A stretch of DNA of 26,514 nt from a virus. The number at the start of each line of letters is the position of its first letter. Position 1 is the stretch's first letter. The notes under the pieces are model-generated. The model saw nothing but the letters and a program-made list of their open reading frames with translations. It did no database searches and was not told the DNA's origin. Position numbers and translations under genes: made by a program. Shown here piece after piece: positions 4,631 through 26,514 of the stretch. The stretch lies in the UHGV virus genome UHGV-0108392, one strand, 5' to 3'.

Positions 4631-5215
4631 TTATTGTTTGTTTTTTTCGTTCTGGTTGATGACAAATTCAATGTAACTTTCGATCTTTGCTTTCTCGGTT
4701 TCGGGTAACAATGCGTAGCGCGAGCGGTCATAGTTGATGGTCGCAGGGTCGTGCGGGTGAATCAGTAATTCATAGCCGTGACGCCCGAATGCGGATGCAA
4801 CATTCTCCAGGGTGGAAATGGAAACGCTGACCTCATTGTTTAACAGGCGGCTGATTGTCACCTGGGCGACGCCGGATGCGCGGTGAAGTTTTCCCTGAGT
4901 TGAAAGGTCGCGGCTTTCGCTCATCCAGCGTTCCAGGTTGTGAGCCGCCAGCTGACCAATGTCGCTTGGGCCGACAGGCTGAAAACCTTCCTGAGAAAGC
5001 GAGCGATCGATATCAAGCCAGTTACGTGGTTTATTGGCGGCAGCTTCAATTTTTCGCGCAACCTGGTCGCCGATAACCTTCTTGCCAAGAGCCCAGCGGT
5101 TTACCAGATTTGCCTGAGTTCCAAGTTTTTCTGCCATCCGCGTCTGAACACCATTGAATTCACGGTCGATCAAGTCGTTGAGATTTTGCCTGCGGACGTC
5201 CTGGATACTTTTCAT
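4631..5215 (-). CDS. Prophage repressor, two HTH-like segments (XRE/CI type), no S24 peptidase domain
   Basis: N-terminal segment (QTRMAEKLGTQANLVNRWALGKKVIGDQVARKIEAAANKPRNWLD) matches the CI-repressor HTH pattern; a second HTH-like segment lies in the C-terminal half. Divergent from a cro-like gene across an operator-rich intergenic region. Confidence 0.6.
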   Translation of the reverse strand: MKSIQDVRRQNLNDLIDREFNGVQTRMAEKLGTQANLVNRWALGKKVIGDQVARKIEAAANKPRNWLDIDRSLSQEGFQPVGPSDIGQLAAHNLERWMSESRDLSTQGKLHRASGVAQVTISRLLNNEVSVSISTLENVASAFGRHGYELLIHPHDPATINYDRSRYALLPETEKAKIESYIEFVINQNEKNKQ

Positions 5216-5369
5216 TTTCTGGAAAATCGCCTCATATATGAATCAGTAGATGATTCAATTTAAAGCAATATTACCCAACAGGTAAATGCACCTCATGGGT
5301 AACTATCCTTGATTTTTGTTACCTTATGGGTGAATATTTATTATCTGAAATAAATATCAGGCAATAGCT
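5216..5369. promoter_or_regulatory. Divergent promoter/operator switch region between repressor and cro-like gene
   Basis: Three operator-like sites related to TTACCT-N3-AGGTAA at 5271-5285, 5288-5302 and 5319-5333. A rightward promoter candidate (TTGATT at 5309-5314, -10 near 5332-5338) has the third operator inside its spacer. Confidence 0.55.
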
Positions 5370-5600
5370 ATGAGCGATAACGGACATTTCGATTTCAAAA
5401 AGCACTGGCTTGCACTTACTCCGGATGAGCGTGAAGCCTTCGCACAGGAAGCCGGAACGACGAGTCACTATATCCAGACTCACTTAACAGGTAAGCGCAA
5501 AATGCCAGGTAATGTATTGATGGATGGGCTTTTTAAAGCCTGTAAATCAAGACAATGGCTGCGCTCAAAAGCAGAACTGGCATACTTCTTCTACTCATGA
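5370..5600 (+). CDS. Cro-like small HTH regulator
   Basis: 76-aa protein with an HTH-like segment (EAGTTSHYIQTHLTGKRKMP); first gene of the rightward operon, opposite the repressor. Confidence 0.5.
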   Translation: MSDNGHFDFKKHWLALTPDEREAFAQEAGTTSHYIQTHLTGKRKMPGNVLMDGLFKACKSRQWLRSKAELAYFFYS

Positions 5601-5750
5601 TATCCAGCCACAACCCTCTGTAGACCGCCATCCGGCGGTCTTTTCATATCTATTCGTACCTCAAAGGTAATAAAAAACCAAATATGGTTGATCTTTTTTT
5701 TGTGTCAGCACAAAATAACCGTAATCCCAATACTAATAACAGGGCTTACC

Positions 5751-5951
5751 ATGGAAATCATTACACGTATTGATGCCGCAAAGCGCGGACTTAAACGCTA
5801 CTACACCGGAAAACCATGTAAGCACGGACATGACAGTGAACGCTGGGTTTACAACGGACACTGTGTTGAGTGCACCATGGAATCAAACCGTCGCATCAGG
5901 GCAGAGATTAAGCAGATCATGATTAATTCCTCCCCACAACACTCAAGCTGA
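5751..5951 (+). CDS. Small Cys/His-rich (zinc-ribbon-like) protein in the cII position
   Basis: MEIITRIDAAKRGLKRYYTGKPCKHGHDSERWVYNGHCVECT with a C-x-H-x-H...H-C-x2-C arrangement. Start is uncertain: the track begins at a TTG at 5688, which would add a hydrophobic N-terminus. Confidence 0.4.
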   Translation: MEIITRIDAAKRGLKRYYTGKPCKHGHDSERWVYNGHCVECTMESNRRIRAEIKQIMINSSPQHSS

Positions 5952-5966
5952 TAGCGGAGATTAATC

Positions 5967-6782
5967 ATGAGCAGACATGCAACAGATTGGGCCTGGGAGA
6001 CAGATCCAGGTAGCTCATCATTAAAGCTCATACTGCTCTCGATGGCTGACAGAGCCGATGAATATAACCTCTGCTACCCCAGCATAGAACGCCTCGTTAA
6101 AGACACTTGCCTGAATAAAAAAACCGTGCAGGCCGGGCTTATATCGCTCATGAAAATGGGGCTTATTTCAGATACCGGAGAGAGAAAGGGAGCGACAAAA
6201 AGAGTGCGGGTTTTCTCTCTTAATATAACCAAAAACGGGAACATTAAAGGCAACCGGGAAGGGGGTAATGAACCCGAAAACGGTAATTTTACCGAAAACG
6301 GGAATATACCCAAAAACGGGATGTTGAATGATCCCAAAAACGGGATGTTGAATGATCCCAAAAACGGGATCCAGAACCAGTCATATAACCAGTCATTTAA
6401 CCAAGAGAGGGAGAGCAGGACAAAAAACGGGGATTCTGTGTCTCATGACCCCGGCGCAAACAACGCCGTGATGAATAACTTTGTTCCTCCTGGTGGGCCA
6501 GGGCAATTAGGCAAATTTGTCATGCATGAACAATGGCAACCATCAGATGACTTTCTTCGGAAAAGCTCATTGCAGGGGATCTACCTGGACAGTCTGCCAA
6601 CGGCACAGGAACTTGCAGAGTTCAGAATTTACTGGATGGCTGAGGGTAAGGCATACCATCAGGCACAGTGGGAGCAGAAGCTGGCAAGGAGGCTGCAGAT
6701 TAGCAGACAGAAGCAATCAACATTACCTGATAACAACGTTCCGCACTGGAACAGCCCTGAAGCATGGGAGGATTTCTTGTGA
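5967..6782 (+). CDS. Replication initiator (O-like; N-terminal HTH, C-terminal DnaT-like region) containing the origin iterons
   Basis: N-terminus (DWAWETD...LKLILLSMADRADEYNLCYPSIERLVKDTCLNKKTVQAGLISLMKMGLI) fits phage replication-initiator HTH proteins. A central repetitive linker is encoded by the iterons. Immediately upstream of the P-like gene. Confidence 0.7.
   Translation: MSRHATDWAWETDPGSSSLKLILLSMADRADEYNLCYPSIERLVKDTCLNKKTVQAGLISLMKMGLISDTGERKGATKRVRVFSLNITKNGNIKGNREGGNEPENGNFTENGNIPKNGMLNDPKNGMLNDPKNGIQNQSYNQSFNQERESRTKNGDSVSHDPGANNAVMNNFVPPGGPGQLGKFVMHEQWQPSDDFLRKSSLQGIYLDSLPTAQELAEFRIYWMAEGKAYHQAQWEQKLARRLQISRQKQSTLPDNNVPHWNSPEAWEDFL
6229..6434 (+). repeat. Iteron array (putative origin of replication) inside the initiator gene
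   Basis: Eight or more direct copies of CC(A/C/G)AAAACGG(G), including two perfect tandem 24-mers CCCAAAAACGGGATGTTGAATGAT (6309-6332 and 6333-6356); these encode the repeated P(K/E)NG peptide. Confidence 0.65.
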
Positions 6783-7564
6783 ACAACGTTTTTACCGCGA
6801 TACAAAACCGTGACGGAGAAGCCCTTTCTCGCATGTCAGGTTATGAGCATCAGTACACCAACAATGACAACGTGGTGAACATGTCAGCAGAGAGGCTTGT
6901 TGATGCCCTTTTCAAACAGCTGAAACAACTGTTTCCGGCGGCAGTGGTAACCAACCTGAAGACGCCAGAGCAGGAAGTTGCTGCAAAACAGCAGTGGATT
7001 GCTGCGTTTGCCGAAGGGGGGATCCGAACCCGTGAACAGGTTTCTGCTGGTATGCGCCACGCCCGCGCCAGTGAGTCTCCGTTCTGGCCGTCGCCAGGGC
7101 AATTCATCAAGTGGTGTAAAGACAGCAAGATGGTTCTTGGCGTCACCATTGACGATGTGATGGCGGAGTTTCACCGGTACAGCAAGGAAAAAAGTTTATA
7201 TCCTGGTGGTCCCGAAAGATTCCCGTGGCGACATCCGGTTATGTACTGGGTCGTATGTGATACCCGCCGTGCAATGTATCAGCGCCAGCTTAGCGAGATT
7301 GAGGTTGAGAAACACGCGCGCAGGCTGCTCGATGATTGGGCGAAAAAGGTAGCTTCCGGACAGCAGATACCCGATCCGGTGATCAGCATACAGGCAAAGC
7401 GAGAGCCCATGAGTACACCTCCGGACACAGGGAGAGACGTTTACCATCCACCAGGGCGAAGTTTCGGGTGCATGCCTAACGCCGCCACCCTTGGGGGAAT
7501 AACACCGGCGCAGTGGCTGATGGAGGAATACAGGCGGGGAAAGGCGGCAGGATTTATCAAGTAA
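6779..7564 (+). CDS. Replication protein P-like (DnaB helicase loader)
   Basis: Clear similarity to lambda P as recalled (REQVSAGMRHARASESPFWPSPGQFIKWCKDS versus lambda MEQVNAGMRVARRQNRPFLPSPGQFVAWCREE). A GTG at 6779 has a GGGAGG RBS and overlaps the O-like stop; an alternative ATG lies at 6764. Confidence 0.8.
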   Translation: MNNVFTAIQNRDGEALSRMSGYEHQYTNNDNVVNMSAERLVDALFKQLKQLFPAAVVTNLKTPEQEVAAKQQWIAAFAEGGIRTREQVSAGMRHARASESPFWPSPGQFIKWCKDSKMVLGVTIDDVMAEFHRYSKEKSLYPGGPERFPWRHPVMYWVVCDTRRAMYQRQLSEIEVEKHARRLLDDWAKKVASGQQIPDPVISIQAKREPMSTPPDTGRDVYHPPGRSFGCMPNAATLGGITPAQWLMEEYRRGKAAGFIK

Positions 7565-7602
7565 TACCAGCGCGATAGCGCATTTTTTTACGCCTCAATG
7601 AT

Positions 7603-16998: not shown

Positions 16999-17694
16999 AT
17001 GAATTTATTTGAGCGTTTGCTGTATCGCCGTCTTTGCAATGAGCAGCCAGTCGATGGTGGAGCAGCTCCGGCTGCGTCAGAACCGTCAGCGCCTGCAGGT
17101 GATACCCCTGCTCCAGTTGGTGATCCATCACAACAGGAAGGTGATAAGCCACAACCTGTTGCTGATGGCGATAAACCTGCTGATGACAAAAAGCCTGAAA
17201 ACGATAAGCAGGATGAAAAAAAGGGTGGCGATAAACCAGAGGGTGCGCCTGAGAAGTACGAGTTTCAGGCTGCCGAAGGCGTAGAGCTGGATACAGAAGC
17301 GTTGAAGGAATTCGAGCCGGTGGCGCGAGAACTTAACCTGACCAACGAGCAAGCGCAAAAGCTGGTTGATGCTTATCCGAAGATTCTGGCAGGTGTTCAG
17401 CAGCGCCAGGCAGAAGCCTGGCAGAAAACAACCGAGCAGTGGGCTGCGGATGTAAAAGCTGACAAAGAAATCGGTGGCGACAAGTTGATTTCTAACCTTA
17501 GCGCCGCACAGCGTGCGCTTGACCAGTTCGGGACACCTGAACTCAAAGAATATCTGAACACCACCGGGCTGGGTAATCACCCTGATCTGGTCAAAACGTT
17601 CGTGAAAATCGGAAAGGCGATGTCTGAAGATGGCATGGTCACCGGTGGTAATGAAGGCCAGCGTAGTGCGGCCGAAGTGCTCTATGGCAAATAA
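16999..17694 (+). CDS. Putative scaffolding protein
   Basis: Between portal and capsid; acidic, Pro/Ala/Asp-rich low-complexity N-terminus followed by a helical region. Assigned by position and composition only. Confidence 0.55.
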   Translation: MNLFERLLYRRLCNEQPVDGGAAPAASEPSAPAGDTPAPVGDPSQQEGDKPQPVADGDKPADDKKPENDKQDEKKGGDKPEGAPEKYEFQAAEGVELDTEALKEFEPVARELNLTNEQAQKLVDAYPKILAGVQQRQAEAWQKTTEQWAADVKADKEIGGDKLISNLSAAQRALDQFGTPELKEYLNTTGLGNHPDLVKTFVKIGKAMSEDGMVTGGNEGQRSAAEVLYGK

Positions 17695-17702
17695 GAGAGG
17701 AA

Positions 17703-18695
17703 ATGACAATGTCTGTTAAAGGCTTAACTGCGCTAACGCTGGCTGACTGGGGTAAGCGCGTCGATCCAAACGGGAAAGTCGATAAGATTATCGAGCTTCT
17801 CGGTCAAACTAACCCGATCCTTCAGGATATGCCTTTTGTCGAAGGGAACCTTCCTACCGGACACCGAACCACCATTCGTTCTGGTTTACCTTCAGCTACC
17901 TGGCGTTTGCTGAACTATGGCGTACAGCCAAGCAAATCAACCACAGTGCAGGTAACCGATTCCGTTGGCATGCTGGAAACCTATGCGGAAGTCGATAAGT
18001 CACTGGCTGATCTGAACGGCAATACCGCCGAATTCCGCCTGTCTGAAGACCGCGCATTTATTGAAGCGATGAATCAGCAGATGGCGCAGACGCTGTTTTA
18101 TGGTGATTCCAGCGTTAACCCTCAGCAGTTTATGGGACTGTCCTCCCGCTATTCCAGCCTGTCTGCGGGTAATGCTCAGAACATCATTGATGCTGGTGGC
18201 ACGGGTACAGATAACACCTCAATCTGGTTAGTGGTGTGGGGCGAAAACACCGTGCATGGCATCTTCCCGAAAGGGCAGAAGGCTGGCATCCAGATGGAAG
18301 ATAAAGGCCAGGTGACACTGGAAGATGCTAATGGCGGCAAGTACGAAGGCTATCGCACCCATTACAAATGGGATAACGGACTTGCTCTGCGTGACTGGCG
18401 TTATGTTGTTCGCATTGCAAACATCGATGTCAGCAATCTTTCAGAACCTTCCTCTGCCGCAAATATTGCGAAGTTGATGGTTAAAGCACTGCATCGCATT
18501 CCAAACCGTGGCATGGGCCGCCCGGTGTTCTACATGAACCGCACTGTAGGCCAGGCTCTTGATCTGCAGTCTCTGGAGAAAACATCTCTGGCGATTAGCG
18601 TAAAAGAGACTGAAGGCGAGTGGTGGACGTCATTCCGTGGTGTACCAATCCGTGAAACTGATGCGCTTCTGGAAACAGAAGCCCGCGTGGTGTAA
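17703..18695 (+). CDS. Major capsid protein
   Basis: 330 aa, strong RBS (AGAGAGGAA), immediately after the scaffold gene and followed downstream by a strong terminator. Assigned by synteny and size. Confidence 0.65.
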   Translation: MTMSVKGLTALTLADWGKRVDPNGKVDKIIELLGQTNPILQDMPFVEGNLPTGHRTTIRSGLPSATWRLLNYGVQPSKSTTVQVTDSVGMLETYAEVDKSLADLNGNTAEFRLSEDRAFIEAMNQQMAQTLFYGDSSVNPQQFMGLSSRYSSLSAGNAQNIIDAGGTGTDNTSIWLVVWGENTVHGIFPKGQKAGIQMEDKGQVTLEDANGGKYEGYRTHYKWDNGLALRDWRYVVRIANIDVSNLSEPSSAANIAKLMVKALHRIPNRGMGRPVFYMNRTVGQALDLQSLEKTSLAISVKETEGEWWTSFRGVPIRETDALLETEARVV

Positions 18696-18746
18696 CGCCT
18701 GTTATTAACCTGTGGGTCGTAACAGACCCACTAATGGAGAAAGAAG

Positions 18747-19184
18747 ATGATCACCGACAAACTGTTGATGTTCTCCGAAGCTCAGGCGGTTACGAATACC
18801 GCGGCTTCTACTGACGTAATCGATCTCGGTCCAATTGACGGAAAACGTCGTGATATCGGCGTGGGTTACCCGCTTGAGTTTTGGGCGCTGGTTAACACAG
18901 CCGCCGCGGCAAGCGGTGATGCAACTGTAAACATCCAGTTGCAGACGAGTGAGAATAACAGCTCATGGACCACTATTTATGATAGTGGCGCACTGGCAAA
19001 GACCGCCCTGACAGCAGGTAAACGAGTTGTTTCTGCAAAGGTGCCTGCCGGTGTTCAGCGATATCTGCGTGTTAACTACTCCGTCGCAACTGGCCCACTA
19101 ACGGCTGGCGAATTCACTGCTGGTATCAGTCTTGATGTTGATGCCAATACGCCGTATCCGATCCGCTCAAAAGTAACTGGTTAA
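18747..19184 (+). CDS. Hypothetical virion protein (possibly head decoration)
   Basis: 145 aa, Ala/Thr/Gly-rich, in the head module. Assigned by position only. Confidence 0.4.
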   Translation: MITDKLLMFSEAQAVTNTAASTDVIDLGPIDGKRRDIGVGYPLEFWALVNTAAAASGDATVNIQLQTSENNSSWTTIYDSGALAKTALTAGKRVVSAKVPAGVQRYLRVNYSVATGPLTAGEFTAGISLDVDANTPYPIRSKVTG

Positions 19185-19194
19185 GGTGATATCG

Positions 19195-19530
19195 ATGTCA
19201 GGTGAGAAACCAAGATACCGCGTTCTGCGCCTCTCTCATATCCATAACACACTGTGGCCGGAGGGGGCAGAAATCGAATACGAAGGTGAGCCTGGTAGCG
19301 CACTGGAACCTGTTAACGATGCAGCCAGACAGGCAAAAGCAAAAGTTGCAGGAAAGGTGTCAATGGCAGCAACCAGCACCAAAATCATCAACGATGTGTC
19401 AGATGATGGTGAACTGGATAAGCTCCGTGAAGAGTACGAATTGCTCTTTAACGAGAAGCCACACCATAACGCCAAAGCTGAAACGCTCCGCGAGAAGATC
19501 GCAGATAAGCGTAAAGAACTGGGCGTGTAA
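19195..19530 (+). CDS. Hypothetical protein
   Basis: ATG at 19195 with AAGGTG RBS; charged helical product; followed by a terminator. Confidence 0.4.
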   Translation: MSGEKPRYRVLRLSHIHNTLWPEGAEIEYEGEPGSALEPVNDAARQAKAKVAGKVSMAATSTKIINDVSDDGELDKLREEYELLFNEKPHHNAKAETLREKIADKRKELGV

Positions 19531-19547
19531 GCCTCGCGAATCAGACA

Positions 19548-19568
19548 AGGGGCTTCGGCCCCTTTATT
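19548..19568 (+). terminator. Rho-independent terminator after the head-gene cluster
   Basis: AGGGGC-TTCG-GCCCCT hairpin followed by TTATT. Confidence 0.6.
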
Positions 19569-19580
19569 GCAGGAGTGTAT

Positions 19581-19904
19581 ATGGAACTCGTAAACCTCAA
19601 AACCGGCACTGACAGCTACCAGGATGAGAGCGGAGAAACCAGAACTCGCGATGAATACCCGTGGGGGCTGTGCATCACGCTGAATAACGACACATTGAAT
19701 AAGCTGAAGGCGCAACCTCAGGGCGTCGGAACAGAAGTGATGATAACTGCGAAGGCTGTTATTCGAGGCCTGTCTGCCAGAGAAACTGACGATGGTGTTA
19801 ATCGCAGCGCCGATCTGCAGATCACTGATATGGCAATCGCTCCTGTTTCCGGTGATGTAGAAAAATCAGCGGCTGAAACCCTCTACGGTAACGGGGGTGA
19901 GTGA
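19581..19904 (+). CDS. Hypothetical protein
   Basis: ATG at 19581 with GCAGGAG RBS; no recognisable motif. Confidence 0.4.
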   Translation: MELVNLKTGTDSYQDESGETRTRDEYPWGLCITLNNDTLNKLKAQPQGVGTEVMITAKAVIRGLSARETDDGVNRSADLQITDMAIAPVSGDVEKSAAETLYGNGGE

Positions 19905-20509
19905 TGGCCTCTGTAGTAGAGATCTGTAATCGTGCGCTGTCCAATATTGGCAACAGCCGCAGCATTAACAGCCTGACGGAAGCCAGCAAGGAAGCGGGGG
20001 AATGTTCGCTGCATTTTGAGGCCTGTCGTGATGCTGTGCTTTCTGATTTTGACTGGAACTTTGCTACAAAACGCGTGGCGCTTGCAGATACGAGCAATCC
20101 ACCGCCTGACTGGGAATATGCGTACCAGTACCCTTCCGATTGTCTGCGCATTACTGAAATTATGCTTCCTGGTGTACGCAATCCAACAGCAGCAATGCGT
20201 GTTCAGTACGAAGTTGGTGCAGACACCAACGGAACAGGAAAATTGATCTACACAGACCAGCCGCAGGCATGGCTTAAGTATGTCTCTCGCGTTACAGATG
20301 TGAACATGTTTGATGCCATTTTTATGGAGGCGCTGGCCTGGCGTCTTGCGGCAGCTATTAACATGGCGCTGACTGGGAATGCAGACCTCGGTACGTTTGC
20401 CCTCAATATGTACAATCGCGTGATTCTTAGTGCTGGCTCGCATAGCCAGAATGAATCACAGGAACCACAGCCACCGGTTGATGAGTTTACCATTGCGAGG
20501 TTGTCCTGA
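19904..20509 (+). CDS. Tail tubular protein A-like (T7 gp11-like adaptor), tentative
   Basis: About 200 aa, same size class and position as T7 gp11; weak N-terminal pattern similarity (ALSNIGNSRSINSLTE versus T7 ILASIGEPPVSTLE as recalled). Confidence 0.45.
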   Translation: MASVVEICNRALSNIGNSRSINSLTEASKEAGECSLHFEACRDAVLSDFDWNFATKRVALADTSNPPPDWEYAYQYPSDCLRITEIMLPGVRNPTAAMRVQYEVGADTNGTGKLIYTDQPQAWLKYVSRVTDVNMFDAIFMEALAWRLAAAINMALTGNADLGTFALNMYNRVILSAGSHSQNESQEPQPPVDEFTIARLS

Positions 20510-22560
20510 TGGCTATCAGTTGGATCCAGCCCAGCTTTGCCGGTGGTGAGATTGGACCGTCGTTGTACGGTCGTATCGACATGGCGAAGTACCAGGTGGC
20601 ATTGCGCAAGTGCGATAACTTTATCGTGCGGCAGTATGGCGGCGTTGAGAATCGACCTGGTACGCGTTTTGTCGGTGCCGCCAAATACCCAAATCGGAAA
20701 TGCCGCCTGATCCCGTTCCAGTTCTCGACGGTTCAGACCTATGCTCTGGAGTTCGGGCACCAGTACATGCGCGTTATCAAAGATGGTGCGTTGGTGCTGA
20801 ACAGCAGCAATGTTATTTATGAAATTGCCACGCCATATACTGAAGCCGATCTGTTCCGAATTAAATTTACGCAAAGCGCCGACGTGCTTACGCTGGTTCA
20901 CCCGGCATACCCGCCGAAAGAGTTGCGCCGCTATGCGCATGACAACTGGCAACTGGTTGATGTGGTAACGAAGAACGGGCCATTTGAAGATATCAATATT
21001 GACGAGTCAGTGACGGTTTATGCCAGCGCCAGCACCGGGACAATTACGTTAACAGCAAGCGCCTCTATTTTTGGCGCGGAGCAGGTAGGCAAATTGTTCT
21101 ATCTGGAACAGCCTGCAGTGGATTCAGTGCCGGTATGGGAAACCAGTAAGAGTACGTCGATTGGCGATATTCGCCGTGCAGACAGTAACTACTATCGCGC
21201 CGTTACAGCAGGCAAAACAGGCACTTTGCGCCCTTCGCATACAGAAGGCACATCATGGGATGGCTGGGGCGGATCCGGTGATGATGATACTGGCATTGAG
21301 TGGGAATATCTGCACAGTGGTTTTGGCATTGCCCGTATCACTGCTGCAAATGGAACTACTGCAACTGCCGAGGTGATTTCCTATATCCCTTCGCAGGTCG
21401 TTGGCGAGGATAATGCCAGCTATAAATGGGCTAAATATGCCTGGAACAGTGTTAATGGTTATCCTGGCACTGTTGTTTATTATCAACAACGTCTTTACTT
21501 CGCCGCATCGACTGCGTTCCCTCAGACTATCTGGGCCAGCCGTACCGGGGATTATAAGGATTTTGGCAAAAGCAATCCTACGCAGGATGACGACAGAATT
21601 ATCTACACCTATGCCGGGCGTCAGGTTAATGAGATCCGCCACCTGATTGATGTCGGTTCGCTGGTGGCACTGACTTCCGGAGGTGAGTACGTCATCACCG
21701 GCGACCAGAACAAAGTGTTAACCCCATCATCATTTGCATTCAGCTCTCAGGGATCAAATGGCTCGAGCAATGTCCCACCAATTGCTGTGGCGAATATTGC
21801 TCTGTTCGTCCAGGAGAAAGGCAGCGTTGTCCGTGATCTGGCCTACTCATTCGATGTTGACGGCTATCAGGGGAACGACCTGACCATCCTTGCCAATCAT
21901 CTTTTTCAGAAGCACAGCATTGTTGACTGGTGCTTCTCGATTGTCCCTTACTCCAGCGCCTTCTGCATTCGTGATGACGGTAAATTACTGGTGATGACCT
22001 ATTTGCGTGATCAGCAGGTTTTTGCATGGGCACCACAGTCCAGTACCGGAAAATATGAAAGCACATGCAGTATCAGCGAAGGCAATGAAGATGCGGTGTA
22101 TTTCGTCGTTAACCGAACCGTTAACGGGCAAGCAGTGAGATACATCGAGAGACTGTCCAGCCGTTTATTTACCAGCGATGAAGACGCTTTCTTTGTTGAT
22201 TCTGGCCTTAGCTATGATGGAAGAAATACGTCTGACAGAACGATGATCATCACTGGTGGTTCTGGTGAATGGGATTACCGCGCGGAATATACAATCAGTG
22301 TTTCTGGTGGTGCGTACTTCACCAGTAGTGATGTCGGTGCGCAACTACAGTTCCCTTATGCCGGAACTGATCCTGATACTGGCGATGAAGTGTCAAAAGA
22401 ATTACGTTGCGACATTATTTCTGTAACCAGCAATACCGCTGTAGTGGTTCGTCCTAACAGGAACGTCCCGCCATCCCTCAGGAATGTGGCCACCACGAAC
22501 TGGCAGATGGCGCGCCGGGCATTTGGCGGCTTGTCTCATCTTGAAGGTCAGACCGTAAAC
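20509..22560 (+). CDS. Tail protein (tail tubular B / nozzle-like by synteny); phage-derived N-terminal ~684 codons of an ORF that runs in frame into foreign DNA
   Basis: Enterobacterial-type composition and codon usage up to about 22560; the same ORF (track 20509..24012) then continues in frame into lower-GC sequence, so the native 3' end is missing. Functional call is by gene order only. Confidence 0.45.
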
Positions 22561-22599
22561 ATGGATGAAGTCAATTTCTTTGCCAAGAGGATGAAAAGC

Positions 22600-24012
22600 A
22601 TGACGGAATATGAAAGAAAAGTTCTGTCAGCGTATGCTGAGGATTATGGTGTGGCTACCATGCAGGATTTAATCAATCTGACATTCAGCATGAAAGGTCT
22701 TTCATTGCTTACAGATTTTTCAGATGCCAGACAGGTCGGGGAACGTCTTTACTTGGATGAATTCTTGGGAATATCAGAAGAAGAAAAAGCGCAGACCAAC
22801 TTTATTGAGTTTGCGGAAAAAACCTTAAAGGAGAGCCGGGTGGAAGTCCTGCCCTATGGAGTTTTTGTAGAGCATGGCTTTGAAATGCAGGAAGTGTACA
22901 ATGGAAAAACATTTCCGTCTTTCGTTGCATCGGATGAGACTGTGGCAATTGTCGAGTTACAGAACAAAGCCGGAGATACAGAGTATCTGTACCTGCCAAC
23001 GGATATCAGTTCCATGAACAAGGTAAAGGAGCGGTTGCAGGTGCAGGATTATTGGGAGATGGAAGTAACCGGAATTGAAAACCTTCGTTTACCGGATATC
23101 CTTGTACCGATGCCGGAAAACATTGATTGTGTGGAAGCACTGACATTATTTAATGAGACATGTCAGGCGGTAAAACGTTTTGATGAAGTGCAGATGACGC
23201 AGCTTGCGATGGTGGTAGAATTTACCGGATTTAGTAGTTCTACTGAGGTGACAAGTATTGCAAGACTGCTTGGGGAATTTGAAGTGAATCCTTTCGTACA
23301 CAATGATGAAGAGTATGGAAAGTACATGGTGGAAGAGTCCGGGTTATTTGATGTGGATGAGTTATTGCTCCCTCATATTAATTATGCAGCCTTTGCAGCG
23401 GATAAGAGACAGGGAACACTTGTGCAAAGTGGTTATGTAGAAAATGGTTTTGTGGGAGCCACCAGAGAACTTTCAGAGTACCAGCAGTATAATGGAGAGT
23501 TTGCTGATCCGTTAGAAATTGATGAAGACTGCTATGAAACATTTAAACTTTATAGTCCGCTGACAGGAAATTTATTTGAAGGTGGCTGTGAGCGGGGAAA
23601 CTTATATCGTAGCGATCTGACACCGTATGCGGAGGAAATTGCAGAAACCATTGAAAATGAATATTGTGTCGGGGAAGAGCCAAGAGGTCTCATGCATTAC
23701 TTTGATAGAAGTCTGGTGGTGGCGGCGAAAGTAATGTCTGCATATCCCAAGGTAGAGATTGTGGATGGCGAAGTTTATGGTGTGCTGGAATGTAAAGTCA
23801 GTGAAGCATTAACAGAGCATGATATTGAAGTGTTAAAGGAATATTGGACCGGACAGATGAGTGACGGATGGGGTGAAGGCTTTGAACAGCATCCAATTTT
23901 AGTAGAGGACGGAGAAATCTATGTCAGTTTTTGGAACAGCGAGAATTTCTGGAATGTTATGACCGAGGAGGAACTGATGGGAGGACAGGTTCAGGGAATG
24001 GATATGTGCTAA
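22600..24012 (+). CDS. Hypothetical acidic protein, Firmicutes-type (about 470 aa if it starts at ATG 22600)
   Basis: AAGAGG RBS 9 nt before ATG 22600; Glu/Asp/Tyr/Phe-rich; GAA/GGA/AAG-heavy codon usage unlike the upstream phage genes. The true N-terminus may lie upstream of the junction. Confidence 0.4.
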   Translation: MTEYERKVLSAYAEDYGVATMQDLINLTFSMKGLSLLTDFSDARQVGERLYLDEFLGISEEEKAQTNFIEFAEKTLKESRVEVLPYGVFVEHGFEMQEVYNGKTFPSFVASDETVAIVELQNKAGDTEYLYLPTDISSMNKVKERLQVQDYWEMEVTGIENLRLPDILVPMPENIDCVEALTLFNETCQAVKRFDEVQMTQLAMVVEFTGFSSSTEVTSIARLLGEFEVNPFVHNDEEYGKYMVEESGLFDVDELLLPHINYAAFAADKRQGTLVQSGYVENGFVGATRELSEYQQYNGEFADPLEIDEDCYETFKLYSPLTGNLFEGGCERGNLYRSDLTPYAEEIAETIENEYCVGEEPRGLMHYFDRSLVVAAKVMSAYPKVEIVDGEVYGVLECKVSEALTEHDIEVLKEYWTGQMSDGWGEGFEQHPILVEDGEIYVSFWNSENFWNVMTEEELMGGQVQGMDMC

Positions 24013-24068
24013 TAAATATATTGAATCCGCCTAAAGAAAAGAATCAAGGAGATTGAGGAAGGAGAATC

Positions 24069-24815
24069 ATGTTAAGAAGAGAAGAAGTAGAACGCATTAA
24101 GGAACAGTACCCGAAAGGTACGCCCATTCGTCTTTACAGCATGGAAGGGGAGCAGACAGTGCCGCCGGGGAGCCGGGGAGTTGTAGACCATGTGGATGAC
24201 ATCGGGCAAATCCATATGAAGTGGGAGAACGGAAGCTCCCTTGCATTAAATGTGGAAGAAGACCGCTTCGATATCATCACACAGCAGGATGAATTATGTG
24301 AAAAGAAAGAGCAGGAGTTTATTGACAAGATAAATGAAATCTTGGACAAGACAGATTTCCTGCTCTTAAATACGTCCTGTAATACGGAGAATACATCCTA
24401 TGCTGCCGAGAAGCTCCTTGCCATGCATCAGGCATTCGAGGAAGTGTATGGAGAAGGGTATGTGGATGAAAGCTATGGTATGATTATGGTGCCTGCGGTG
24501 GTAAGAGGAAGGGAATCCGGCATACAGACCCTTGCGTTGGTAACACTGGACTTGGAATCATCCGGTGAGCATTGGGGTACTACATTCCTTACACCGGGAG
24601 GACCATTGGTGCAGGGACATGCAGAGCTTACGGAGGAGCAGAAGCGTGCCATCAGGGAATACTATATTCCCTACGATTATTGGTACACACCACTCGTTGA
24701 ACGTGACCACCATGTGAACTTTACGGATATGCCGGAGACAGTTGCAGACATCCGCAGGCTGGTGGATGAATCCTTGGTGACAGGACAGGCACAGCAGATG
24801 GAGGGACCGAAATAA
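24069..24815 (+). CDS. Hypothetical protein, Firmicutes mobile-element type (possibly DUF4314-like N-terminus)
   Basis: GGAGGAAGGAG RBS; N-terminus (IKEQYPKGTPIRLYSMEGEQTVPPGSRGVVDHVDDIGQIHMKWENGSSLAL) resembles a small domain I recall from Firmicutes conjugative-element proteins. Family assignment is from memory and uncertain. Confidence 0.45.
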   Translation: MLRREEVERIKEQYPKGTPIRLYSMEGEQTVPPGSRGVVDHVDDIGQIHMKWENGSSLALNVEEDRFDIITQQDELCEKKEQEFIDKINEILDKTDFLLLNTSCNTENTSYAAEKLLAMHQAFEEVYGEGYVDESYGMIMVPAVVRGRESGIQTLALVTLDLESSGEHWGTTFLTPGGPLVQGHAELTEEQKRAIREYYIPYDYWYTPLVERDHHVNFTDMPETVADIRRLVDESLVTGQAQQMEGPK

Positions 24816-24832
24816 AGGAGAGGAGGACATAA

Positions 24833-25834
24833 TTGAATAGCATTATCAGTTGGGTAGGCGGTAAGAAGGCACTCCGTGACCTGATATACCTGAGAATGCC
24901 GGGGCACTATGACCGCTACATAGAAGTATTTGGCGGAGGCGGATGGGTTTTATTTGGAAAGCCGCCTGATAAATGTATGGAGGTTTACAATGATTTCAAT
25001 TCGAATCTTGCAAACCTCTTTTATTGTGTCAAGGAAAGACCGATGGCACTGCTTCGGGAATTGTCTTTCCTGCCGCTTAACTCCAGGGATGAGTTTGTGA
25101 CACTCAGGAAATTCCTTACGATGGAAGAATTCAAAAGTGAGCATCTGGCAGAGGAACTGGAGATAGCAACTCATTTTCTGAAAGAGCCGGAGGCAGCGGA
25201 AATTTGTGACATCCTTATGGAACGAGCAGTAGTCGGGGATGTGAAAAGGGCGGCGGCCTTTTATAAGATTATCCGCTACAGCTATGGAAGTGGCTGTACC
25301 TCTTATGGGTGCCAGCCATTTGACATAAGGAAGACCTTTACTATTCTCTGGGAGGCAAACCGGAGGTTAAAAGATACCGTGATTGAAAATAAAGATTTTG
25401 AGGCACTCATCCGTCAGTATGACAGACCGAATGCCTTTTTTTATTGCGATCCACCGTATTTTGAAACCGAAGGGCATTATGAAGTGGTGTTCCGTAAAGA
25501 AGACCATGTAAGACTTAGGGATACGCTGGCAGGCATCGAGGGAAAATTCATGGTCTCCTACAATGACTGTGAGTACATCAGGGAATTGTATCAGGACTTT
25601 CAGATTGAAGCGGTAACACGAATCAACAATCTAGCACAGCGCTATGATAACGGAAGTGAGTTTCCGGAGGTGCTGATTGCCAACTATGACATGGAAGAAA
25701 GAAGAAAGAGCCTGCCGATGCAGATGAATCTGTTTGAAATGTTTGATGAGCAGAAGACTTCTGTGTGGCATGGCAGTAGCAGGAAGGAGGACGAAGATGG
25801 TTCAGTTAGTCGAGATAACAGGAGTGCTGAATGA
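24833..25834 (+). CDS. Dam-type (D12 class) N6-adenine DNA methyltransferase
   Basis: N-terminal SWVGGKK motif and DPPY catalytic motif (FFYCDPPYFE); TTG start with AGGAGG RBS. Confidence 0.8.
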   Translation: MNSIISWVGGKKALRDLIYLRMPGHYDRYIEVFGGGGWVLFGKPPDKCMEVYNDFNSNLANLFYCVKERPMALLRELSFLPLNSRDEFVTLRKFLTMEEFKSEHLAEELEIATHFLKEPEAAEICDILMERAVVGDVKRAAAFYKIIRYSYGSGCTSYGCQPFDIRKTFTILWEANRRLKDTVIENKDFEALIRQYDRPNAFFYCDPPYFETEGHYEVVFRKEDHVRLRDTLAGIEGKFMVSYNDCEYIRELYQDFQIEAVTRINNLAQRYDNGSEFPEVLIANYDMEERRKSLPMQMNLFEMFDEQKTSVWHGSSRKEDEDGSVSRDNRSAE

Positions 25835-26246
25835 AAAAGGCTGTATTGAAATTCCCATTGTATTGCTTGCACAGACAGGCATCTGTATCGGGGAGGAGGT
25901 AAATCTGATTTATCTTGCCGCAGGGGAGAAGGATTACCGTAATGAATCAAGGGAATTCATGTTGAAAAGAGCCGGGGAAAATCCATTGGAGGAGCTGCAG
26001 AGTGGGGAAACGGAGTTGAAACTGCCGCCACAGTTGCTTGCAGATGCACACATTCCCTTGGATGCAGACCTGGACATTGTCTGCTTGGATAGAAAAATTG
26101 TGATTCTGCCTACGGAGGATGTGGAGTCAGAGGATGTACCCAAAGAACTTCTGGATATCTGTGCAGAGCTTGGCATCCCCAGAGAAAAAGTAAACATTGT
26201 TTTGCGTATGACCGAGGAGGGGAGCGATGAAAAAGCCGGTGTATAA
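25797..26246 (+). CDS. Protein with two AbrB/SpoVT-like (swapped-hairpin) segments
   Basis: ATG at 25797 with GGAGGA RBS, overlapping the methyltransferase 3' end; two segments (IEIPIVLLAQTGICIGEEVNL and ELKLPPQLLADAHIPLDADLDIVCLDRKIVILP) resemble AbrB/MazE-type DNA-binding hairpins. Confidence 0.45.
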   Translation: MVQLVEITGVLNEKGCIEIPIVLLAQTGICIGEEVNLIYLAAGEKDYRNESREFMLKRAGENPLEELQSGETELKLPPQLLADAHIPLDADLDIVCLDRKIVILPTEDVESEDVPKELLDICAELGIPREKVNIVLRMTEEGSDEKAGV

Positions 26247-26514
26247 GCTGTTAGATGAAAAGGGCAGGGTACTGATACCTTTGGAAATGCGACAAAAAGC
26301 GGAGATGGAGAAAGGGGATATCTTAAAGGTTTCCATAAACTCCGGGAAGATTGTTATATCCAAGGTAGACATTTTAGAGGTAGGAAAGCAGGATGCAGAA
26401 GCTGTGGAGGCTTATGTCCATGCAGCCGTAAAGACCATGAGCCATGAAAAGCAGGTGGCACTTGCCGCGAGGATTTTGAAACTTGCACAGCAGGAGGGAG
26501 GAGCGGATTGCTAA
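26227..26514 (+). CDS. AbrB/SpoVT/MazE-family small DNA-binding protein
   Basis: VYKLLDEKGRVLIPLEMRQKAEMEKGDILKVSINSGKIVISKV matches the AbrB-type swapped-hairpin pattern; overlaps the upstream gene by 20 nt; its stop codon is the last 3 nt of the window. Confidence 0.5.
   Translation: MKKPVYKLLDEKGRVLIPLEMRQKAEMEKGDILKVSINSGKIVISKVDILEVGKQDAEAVEAYVHAAVKTMSHEKQVALAARILKLAQQEGGADC

Follow-up and report, generated by a model that had tools for sequence, protein, structure and literature searches.

A metagenome contig joining an E. coli phiV10-like prophage to a Lachnospiraceae island is very probably an inter-species misassembly

The phages phiV10 and TL-2011b belong to a group of epsilon15-like temperate podoviruses, and many E. 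coli prophages are of the same kind. Downstream of the tail gene these phages carry a hypothetical gene, the gene of a T7 gp14-family core protein and further virion genes. A very common conjugative-element-like island of Lachnospiraceae contains ArdA-like, DUF4314, D12 methyltransferase, YodL, SpoVG and Tad-type pilus genes, and is integrated beside a gene of the tRNA (uracil-5)-methyltransferase family. Short-read de Bruijn assembly of metagenomes can join unrelated genomes at an exact shared word of k to k+1 nucleotides. Inter-species translocation is reported as the commonest kind of misassembly in assemblies of the CAMI benchmark (metaMIC preprint, doi 10.1101/2021.06.22.449514). For path extension, metaSPAdes resorts to coverage-based rules where read pairs give no information (PMC5411777).

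The stretch of DNA analysed here (the window, 26,514 nt) combines parts of the phage and of the island. It is the first 26.5 kb of contig NODE_105_length_31728_cov_2.553942 from ENA ERZ1303912, whose name has the SPAdes-style format and gives a k-mer coverage of 2.55, which is very low. We consider it very probable that the window is the start of a low-coverage short-read metagenome contig produced by inter-species misassembly, and not a cross-phylum gene fusion.

The left part (1-22540, plus strand) is a segment of a phiV10/TL-2011b-like podoviral E. coli prophage with early/recombination, terminase, portal, major capsid, cement, staple and connector genes and the 5' part of a tail gene; the gene names were taken from the RefSeq locus (L001) and from Pfam labels on L004. 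These 22.5 kb, including tail codons 1-684, are 98% identical to the phiV10/TL-2011b group, and positions 1-22562 share 98-99% identity with more than 500 E. coli genomes. E. coli chromosomes cover 90-92% of this interval at about 98% identity, and 423 genomes cover at least 80% of it. The end of the segment (20000-22562) matches 528 E. coli records and 16 phages, phiV10 and TL-2011b among them, at 98.0-98.6% identity, and among the matches listed all tail-region matches end at query position 2563, which is window position 22562. The sequence past this position is covered by none of the 5,426 complete E. coli genomes searched, and no part of 22563-26514 is present in any of them.

The tail gene thus stops short. 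Its native form has 2472 nt and encodes 823 residues (translated from L001 3510-5981), of which the window holds the 5' 2054 nt, codons 1-684 plus 2 nt (20509-22562, plus strand). The last 139 codons are absent, in agreement with the proposal of the first-pass annotation that the gene had lost its native 3' end, and compared with the phiV10/TL-2011b group the window also lacks all the virion genes downstream. In E. coli the native sequence past the join is ATCCTCTCTGATGCG, and the native continuation is GTAAACATCCTCTCTGATGCG (also GACCGTAAACATCCTCTCTGATGCG). A protein of 685 residues from the tail-protein cluster (P0134) was considered as an independent truncation at the same point and rejected; from about residue 618 on, its sequence departs from the tail protein and follows an unrelated frame.

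The right part has a different parent. Positions 22541-26514 are 100.000% identical to a human-gut Lachnospiraceae MAG (L005) and 99.95% identical to three further loci (L002, L003 and L006), the last of which is an isolate genome with the matching region on a 318-kb contig. The 22 GTDB loci that contain this DNA are all from Lachnospiraceae or other Clostridia, and the gene order is common to the 11 native copies compared. Separate homology searches with the two sides, as the first-pass annotation had proposed, thus lead to different organisms. Compared with the native island, the copy in the window begins 157 nt into the ArdA-like gene and lacks the left end of the island together with the upstream 202-aa gene.

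The first gene of the island part is the 3' portion of the ArdA-like gene (22563-24012, plus strand; residues 60-542), without the native start and the first 52-59 codons. The right half of the open frame is 100% identical over 482 aa to a protein of 542 aa (P0001). This protein has 642 homologues, of which the close ones are 542-544 aa long, and the ArdA-like protein has 542 aa in 11 of 11 native copies. In the parent the start codon lies 177 nt upstream of the join, outside the window. An ATG at 22600 preceded by AAGAGG, which had been put forward as a plausible Firmicutes start, is therefore discarded: it encodes the internal Met73 of the 542-aa protein, and in every native copy the start precedes the join. 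The Pfam ArdA profile (PF07275) scores 30.2 bits on full-length P0001 and 25.6 bits on the fusion frame, against a cutoff of 27. The domain spans only about 150 of the 542 residues of the native protein, and we therefore use the name ArdA-like for a putative function assigned from sequence.

Three-way alignment of the window with the E. coli (L001) and Lachnospiraceae (L002) loci places the join within 22541-22562 (plus strand), an exact 22-nt word, TTGAAGGTCAGACCGTAAACAT, that is common to both parents and found once in the window. The limits of the BLAST matches (17000-22562 against L001; 22541-26514 against L002, L003, L005 and L006) show that the two parental homologies overlap by exactly these 22 nt. 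Each parent continues differently past the join; in Lachnospiraceae the native sequence upstream of it is CTGCACAAAT, and the native continuation is CTGCACAAATTTGAAGGTC (also CTGCACAAATTTGAAGGTCAGACC). Both genes are cut in mid-body, the tail gene before its C-terminal end and the ArdA-like gene after its N-terminus. Both genes have the word in one and the same reading frame, as (L/F)EGQTVN (...LEGQTVNI... in the tail protein, ...FEGQTVNM... in the ArdA-like protein), and because of this shared frame the tail frame runs on across the boundary, as first annotated, into an open reading frame of 1167 aa (20509-24012). Given two genes on the same strand, a common frame has a chance of about 1 in 3, here aided by the shared peptide EGQTVN.

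A word of this length can be shared by chance. There are 4^22 = 1.8e13 possible 22-mers, and simple arithmetic for a 5-Mb genome against both strands of a 3-Mb genome gives about 1.7 common 22-mers, and hundreds across a whole gut community.

Composition changes as sharply as homology, and both do so within the open frame 20509-24012, at 22541-22562, with E. coli prophage identity stopping at 22562 and Lachnospiraceae identity starting at 22541. The GC fraction falls from 0.497 (1-22540) to 0.451 (22563-26514), purines on the plus strand go up from a fraction of 0.52 to one of 0.59, and the GC skew, about 0.05 before the boundary, leaps to 0.2-0.4. In strand-symmetric tetranucleotide usage the right block lies at a distance of 0.0305 from the left reference (z about 13), compared with 0.0117 +/- 0.0014 and a maximum of 0.0152 for left blocks of the same size, so that composition is not uniform across the boundary. 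The abrupt compositional boundary noticed in the first-pass annotation is thus real, and sharper than could be seen there.

The contig contains a second join, 8.8 kb past the first and again in mid-gene. At contig position 31401 an AAA_31/CpaE-like gene of the island passes into an antisense metA gene (PF04204, E = 4e-55) from a third, Clostridia-like source, after which the contig ends. Two native variants of the island (L029 and L036) match the contig up to 31401 and then diverge, and the island copy of the full contig thus also ends abruptly, within the AAA_31 gene. The foreign block, first estimated at 4 kb, is 8.9 kb or longer when the full contig is considered. The exact metA parent of this join was not found, the best relatives having 91-93% amino acid identity, and the shared word there is for that reason inferred, at no more than 21 nt.

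In the collections scanned, the junction occurs on this contig only. Among about 15 billion proteins, one contig carries the fusion protein, and scans for the junction in IMG/VR (with a 54-mer), in JGI metagenomes (41-mer) and in the 5,426 complete E. coli genomes found no copy. The entry of the contig reads 'samples_with_this_contig 2', against the one contig in the search with the fusion protein. The second sample would more simply be a re-deposit of the same assembly, given that at 2.5x coverage the whole 31.7-kb contig would have to be identical in both.

A chimeric assembly or artificial join, which the first-pass annotation had regarded as the likeliest explanation, is supported by observations of several kinds: both parents are found intact elsewhere, at 98-100% identity, and are identified directly, as are the exact shared word, the truncation of both genes, the singleton status of the junction and the second mid-gene join, and the coverage is 2.55. 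SPAdes and metaSPAdes use 21 as their smallest default k, and the graph then has 21-mers as vertices and 22-mers as edges. The 22-nt overlap corresponds to one (k+1)-mer at k=21. With the assembler and its k values taken from the format of the contig name and from these defaults, we infer that the likeliest cause is an inter-species misassembly in the de Bruijn graph at k=21.

We propose that an E. coli phiV10-like prophage occurred in the sample together with a Lachnospiraceae island, and that the tail gene of the one and the ArdA-like gene of the other share TTGAAGGTCAGACCGTAAACAT by chance. In a de Bruijn graph at k=21 both genomes would merge at TTGAAGGTCAGACCGTAAACAT. At a k-mer coverage of about 2.5x, the correct continuations of the two genomes had probably been absent, removed as tips or impossible to tell apart by read pairs, and the assembly path could have passed from phage to island, with the join kept in the final contig. 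The in-frame 'fusion protein' of 1167 aa would then be a by-product. The contig resembles known inter-species translocation misassemblies in its low coverage, in the genes cut on both sides, in the abrupt switch of composition and taxonomy, in the singleton junction and in the presence of a second such join, and no departure from them was observed. Its sole unusual feature is that the shared word stands in the same frame of both genes, giving a long artefactual fusion frame.

We consider it improbable that the join arose in vitro, by template switching at the 22-nt microhomology during library PCR or whole-genome amplification, with the assembler then reproducing the chimeric molecule faithfully. 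The microhomology at the join fits such an event, and at a coverage of 2.55 one chimeric read could decide the path. However, the second mid-gene join at a word of similar length would call for two rare molecular events, independent of each other, on a single path, whereas a single graph-level cause accounts for both joins. Moreover, the overlap equals the edge length at k=21, to which a molecular event is not bound. An in-vitro chimera would still be an artefact, and the practical verdict is unchanged.

Least probable of all, and highly unlikely, is a real recombinant, in which illegitimate recombination at a microhomology would have brought 8.9 kb or more of a Lachnospiraceae conjugative island into an E. 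coli phiV10-like prophage, with replacement of the tail 3' end and creation of a tail/ArdA-like fusion frame. The join agrees with such an event, which is known to leave microhomology; the open frame is unbroken, and two samples are listed for the contig, of which an independent second read set would favour a real junction. Against this, any transfer would have to be extremely recent, since a Lachnospiraceae genome matches the foreign DNA at 100% identity; within 9.2 kb the contig does not return to E. coli DNA but enters an antisense metA gene, which comes from a third, Clostridia-like source; the right-hand DNA stands beside the phage in 0 of 5,426 complete E. coli genomes, 0 of 50,697 phage records and 0 of 72,556 plasmids; the fusion protein is a singleton; and the phage would be left without its tail C-terminus and, as far as the contig goes, without all downstream virion genes. 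In the contig and the E. coli genomes, recipient DNA was not seen on both sides of the foreign block, nor was the junction seen in an isolate or an independent sample. If this reading were true, a metagenome would here have captured a very recent transfer from Firmicutes to Proteobacteria in a gut E. coli. A phage or plasmid as vehicle is likewise unsupported, because the right-hand DNA has no match in the 72,556 plasmids (megablast) and only three partial ones in the 50,697 phage records (blastn), all to uncultured human-faecal 'Bacteriophage sp.' at 63-82% identity and at most 25% coverage.

With inter-species misassembly as the preferred explanation, the fusion is most likely an artefact and has no importance as biology. 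It is instructive as a case for quality control, in that a public ENA contig and a predicted protein of 1167 aa mix an E. coli phage, a Lachnospiraceae island and a third genome. Contigs of this kind may give rise to erroneous claims of cross-phylum transfer, to wrong host ranges for phages, to contaminated bins, and to antirestriction or methyltransferase genes falsely taken as 'phage-encoded'. A reusable screen would look for an overlap of parental homologies of about k nucleotides, genes cut on both sides, very low coverage and more than one join per contig.

The remaining genes of the window, all on the plus strand, are those of the native island. A DUF4314 protein gene (24069-24815; PF14192, E = 3.4e-27), in the gene order of L002 and L027-L036, is followed by a predicted D12-class N6-adenine DNA methyltransferase gene (24833-25834; PF02086, E = 1.5e-27), whose exact protein is indexed in 4034 collection blocks and has the island context in 10 of the 10 places shown. 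A hypothetical gene of 149 aa (25797-26246; gene call L004 15289-15738) is present in all native copies, and Pfam gave no match for the longer frame of 170 aa at this position. The last gene (26227-26514), also in all native copies, encodes a 95-aa AbrB/MazE-like protein of the putative SpoVT/AbrB fold, with a weak PF04014 match (E = 2e-4) under the cutoff. The strong ribosome-binding sites first annotated in the right part are confirmed as GGAGG-type motifs upstream of the starts at 24069, 24833 and 26227. The window ends with the stop codon of the AbrB/MazE-like gene, and the contig runs on beyond it.

The fusion of a phage tail gene to an ArdA-like gene in this genome is almost certainly not a real biological feature. 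The window corresponds to bases 1-26514 of ENA ERZ1303912 NODE_105_length_31728_cov_2.553942, the only record encoding the fusion protein (1 contig among ~15 billion proteins); its name has the SPAdes/metaSPAdes format, and the coverage value of 2.55 is very low. No junction-spanning words were found in IMG/VR or in JGI metagenomes. The source contig is listed with ‘samples_with_this_contig 2’ versus ‘contigs 1’ for the fusion protein, which, given an identical 31.7-kb contig at 2.55 coverage, is most simply explained by re-deposition of one assembly.

The compositional boundary claimed in the first-pass annotation is real and is seen in both sliding-window GC and tetranucleotide analyses. In 500-nt windows, GC drops at 22500 from ~0.50 to 0.43-0.45, and GC skew changes from ~0.05 to 0.2-0.4. 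Block GC is 0.497 for 1-22540 versus 0.451 for 22563-26514, with purine contents of the plus strand of 0.52 and 0.59, respectively, and in its strand-symmetric tetranucleotide profile the right block falls 13 standard deviations outside the spread among left blocks of the same size. A single ORF (20509-24012, 1167 aa) indeed crosses the boundary in frame, and a GGAGG-type ribosome-binding site stands before each of the right-hand genes at 24069, 24833 and 26227.

Homology identifies the left side as a prophage of E. coli, from a temperate podovirus of the phiV10/TL-2011b-like type. With 20000-22562 as query, 528 E. coli and 16 phage records gave matches of 95-99% identity (among the matches listed, 98.4-98.6% and 97.7-98.2%, respectively), and all matches listed stop at query base 2563, window position 22562. 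E. coli chromosomes cover 90-92% of 1-22562 at ~98% identity. In the E. coli RefSeq prophage locus L001, the ORF from 20509 is annotated as a ‘phage tail protein’ (2472 nt, 823 aa), with more virion genes after it. In the tail-protein cluster, assemblies of many E. coli isolates end inside the tail gene (20509-22562), and partial proteins of 628-633 aa are listed (P0122, P0123, P0128, P0129). These endings point to a repeat or variable boundary around 22390-22410 at which short-read assemblies break, so that problems with coverage or with the graph may often arise at the tail gene's 3' end.

The right side is assigned to Lachnospiraceae by its near-perfect matches: 22541-26514 agrees with a Lachnospiraceae MAG (L005) at 100.000% identity, and at 99.95% with an isolate genome (L006, 318-kb contig) and with two ENA contigs (L002, L003). 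The 22 related loci among 100,044 species genomes all belong to Lachnospiraceae or other Clostridia, and no part of 22563-26514 was found in any complete E. coli genome (5,426) or plasmid. The block carries the 3' part of the ArdA-like gene (to 24012; native protein 542 aa) and genes for a DUF4314 protein (from 24069), a D12 adenine methyltransferase (24833-25834), a 149-aa hypothetical protein (25797-26246) and an AbrB/MazE-like protein (from 26227), after which YodL, SpoVG and Tad-type pilus genes follow in the full element. This is a very common element: its exact methyltransferase protein has index entries in 4034 of the collection's blocks, and the inspected native copies always have the intact ArdA-like gene, with a 202-aa gene upstream.

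Homology to the one parent and homology to the other coincide over exactly 22 nt (22541-22562, TTGAAGGTCAGACCGTAAACAT). This word encodes ...L-EGQTVN-I... in the tail gene and ...F-EGQTVN-M... in the ArdA-like gene, and because it is read in the same frame in both, the artefactual ORF stays open. Past the word, the native E. coli sequence continues ...ACATCCTCTCTGATGCG; the native Lachnospiraceae sequence leads into it with ...CTGCACAAATTTGAAGG. The join truncates both genes within their coding sequence. The tail gene has lost its native 3' end, as first proposed, lacking codons 685-823 of the 823-aa protein in L001, and the ArdA-like gene lacks its start and first 52 codons, with residues 53-59 lying within the shared word. 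ATG 22600, earlier taken for a Firmicutes start, is internal Met73 of the native ArdA-like protein.

A second join lies beyond the window. Island homology reaches contig position 31401 (20893 in L004, the source-contig locus) and stops inside an AAA_31/CpaE-like gene, and the opposite strand of the final 327 nt encodes the N-terminal portion of MetA, a homoserine O-acyltransferase (PF04204, E = 4e-55). This antisense metA part (contig 31381-31728, L004 20873-21220) is from another Clostridia-like genome. Up to L004 20893 the contig is identical to the native island variants L029 and L036, which then go on with CTTGC...; native copies likewise continue past this point in 11 of 11 cases, each in its own variant. 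Since the MetA reading (…WSKSHVHSTLHIC) reaches back to ~L004 20873, we infer that a word no longer than 21 nt (GCAGATGTGCAGGGTGGAGTG) is shared; this length is an estimate, as a search for the exact metA parent gave only relatives, the best of them with 91-93% protein identity. The contig thus appears to be a three-part chimera, joined twice within genes at common words of ~21-22 nt. An artefactual ORF of 169 aa reads through the second join.

The fusion is almost certainly an artefact of assembly or in-vitro origin, and graph misassembly specifically is very probable; the 22-nt overlap, the singleton status and the second join support the chimeric assembly preferred in the first-pass annotation. 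SPAdes and metaSPAdes start by default at k = 21, with k-mers as vertices and (k+1)-mers as edges of the graph, and the 22-nt identity would be exactly one common edge at this k. Sharing of 22-mers by chance is expected: with 4^22 = 1.8e13, ~1.7 would be common to a 5-Mb genome and a 3-Mb one taken on both strands, and hundreds would be shared in a whole gut community. At a k-mer coverage of ~2.5x, many true continuations would be missing at larger k, and paths made at small k, or picked by coverage-based rules, could then persist. metaSPAdes uses coverage-based rules to choose paths where read pairs are uninformative (PMC5411777), and among misassemblies in CAMI benchmark assemblies, inter-species translocations are reported to be the commonest class (doi 10.1101/2021.06.22.449514). 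A chimera from template switching in vitro, which would likewise be artefactual, does not account for a single contig having two joins whose overlaps are k-like. A real microhomology-mediated recombinant is highly improbable, as the foreign block is 100% identical to a Lachnospiraceae genome and is not found in the 5,426 E. coli genomes, the fusion is a singleton, and the contig never returns to E. coli DNA and jumps to a third source.

Most inspected native copies have the island next to a tRNA (uracil-5)-methyltransferase-family gene, with many different surroundings on the chromosome. In most copies (L027-L036, ~5200-7600 of each; L002, 7553-10011) the island follows immediately downstream of this gene, and the chromosomal contexts differ, numbering at least 9; this arrangement suggests that integration is site-specific and takes place at the gene's 3' end. 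L027 is an exception, with upstream DrmE_C, helicase and MZB genes that look like a DISARM defence system. The methyltransferase gene (24833-25834) overlaps the next called gene (25797-26246), and the mechanical TTG ORF from 25734 has 170 aa, against 149 aa for the gene as called in every native copy. Two other public proteins join the same ArdA-like protein to sequence unrelated to it: P0004 (671 aa, from a 27,072-nt ENA contig) changes to another protein at ~residue 497, and P0037 (623 aa, PF00145) has a C5-methyltransferase domain; these may be further chimeric joins or island deletion variants.
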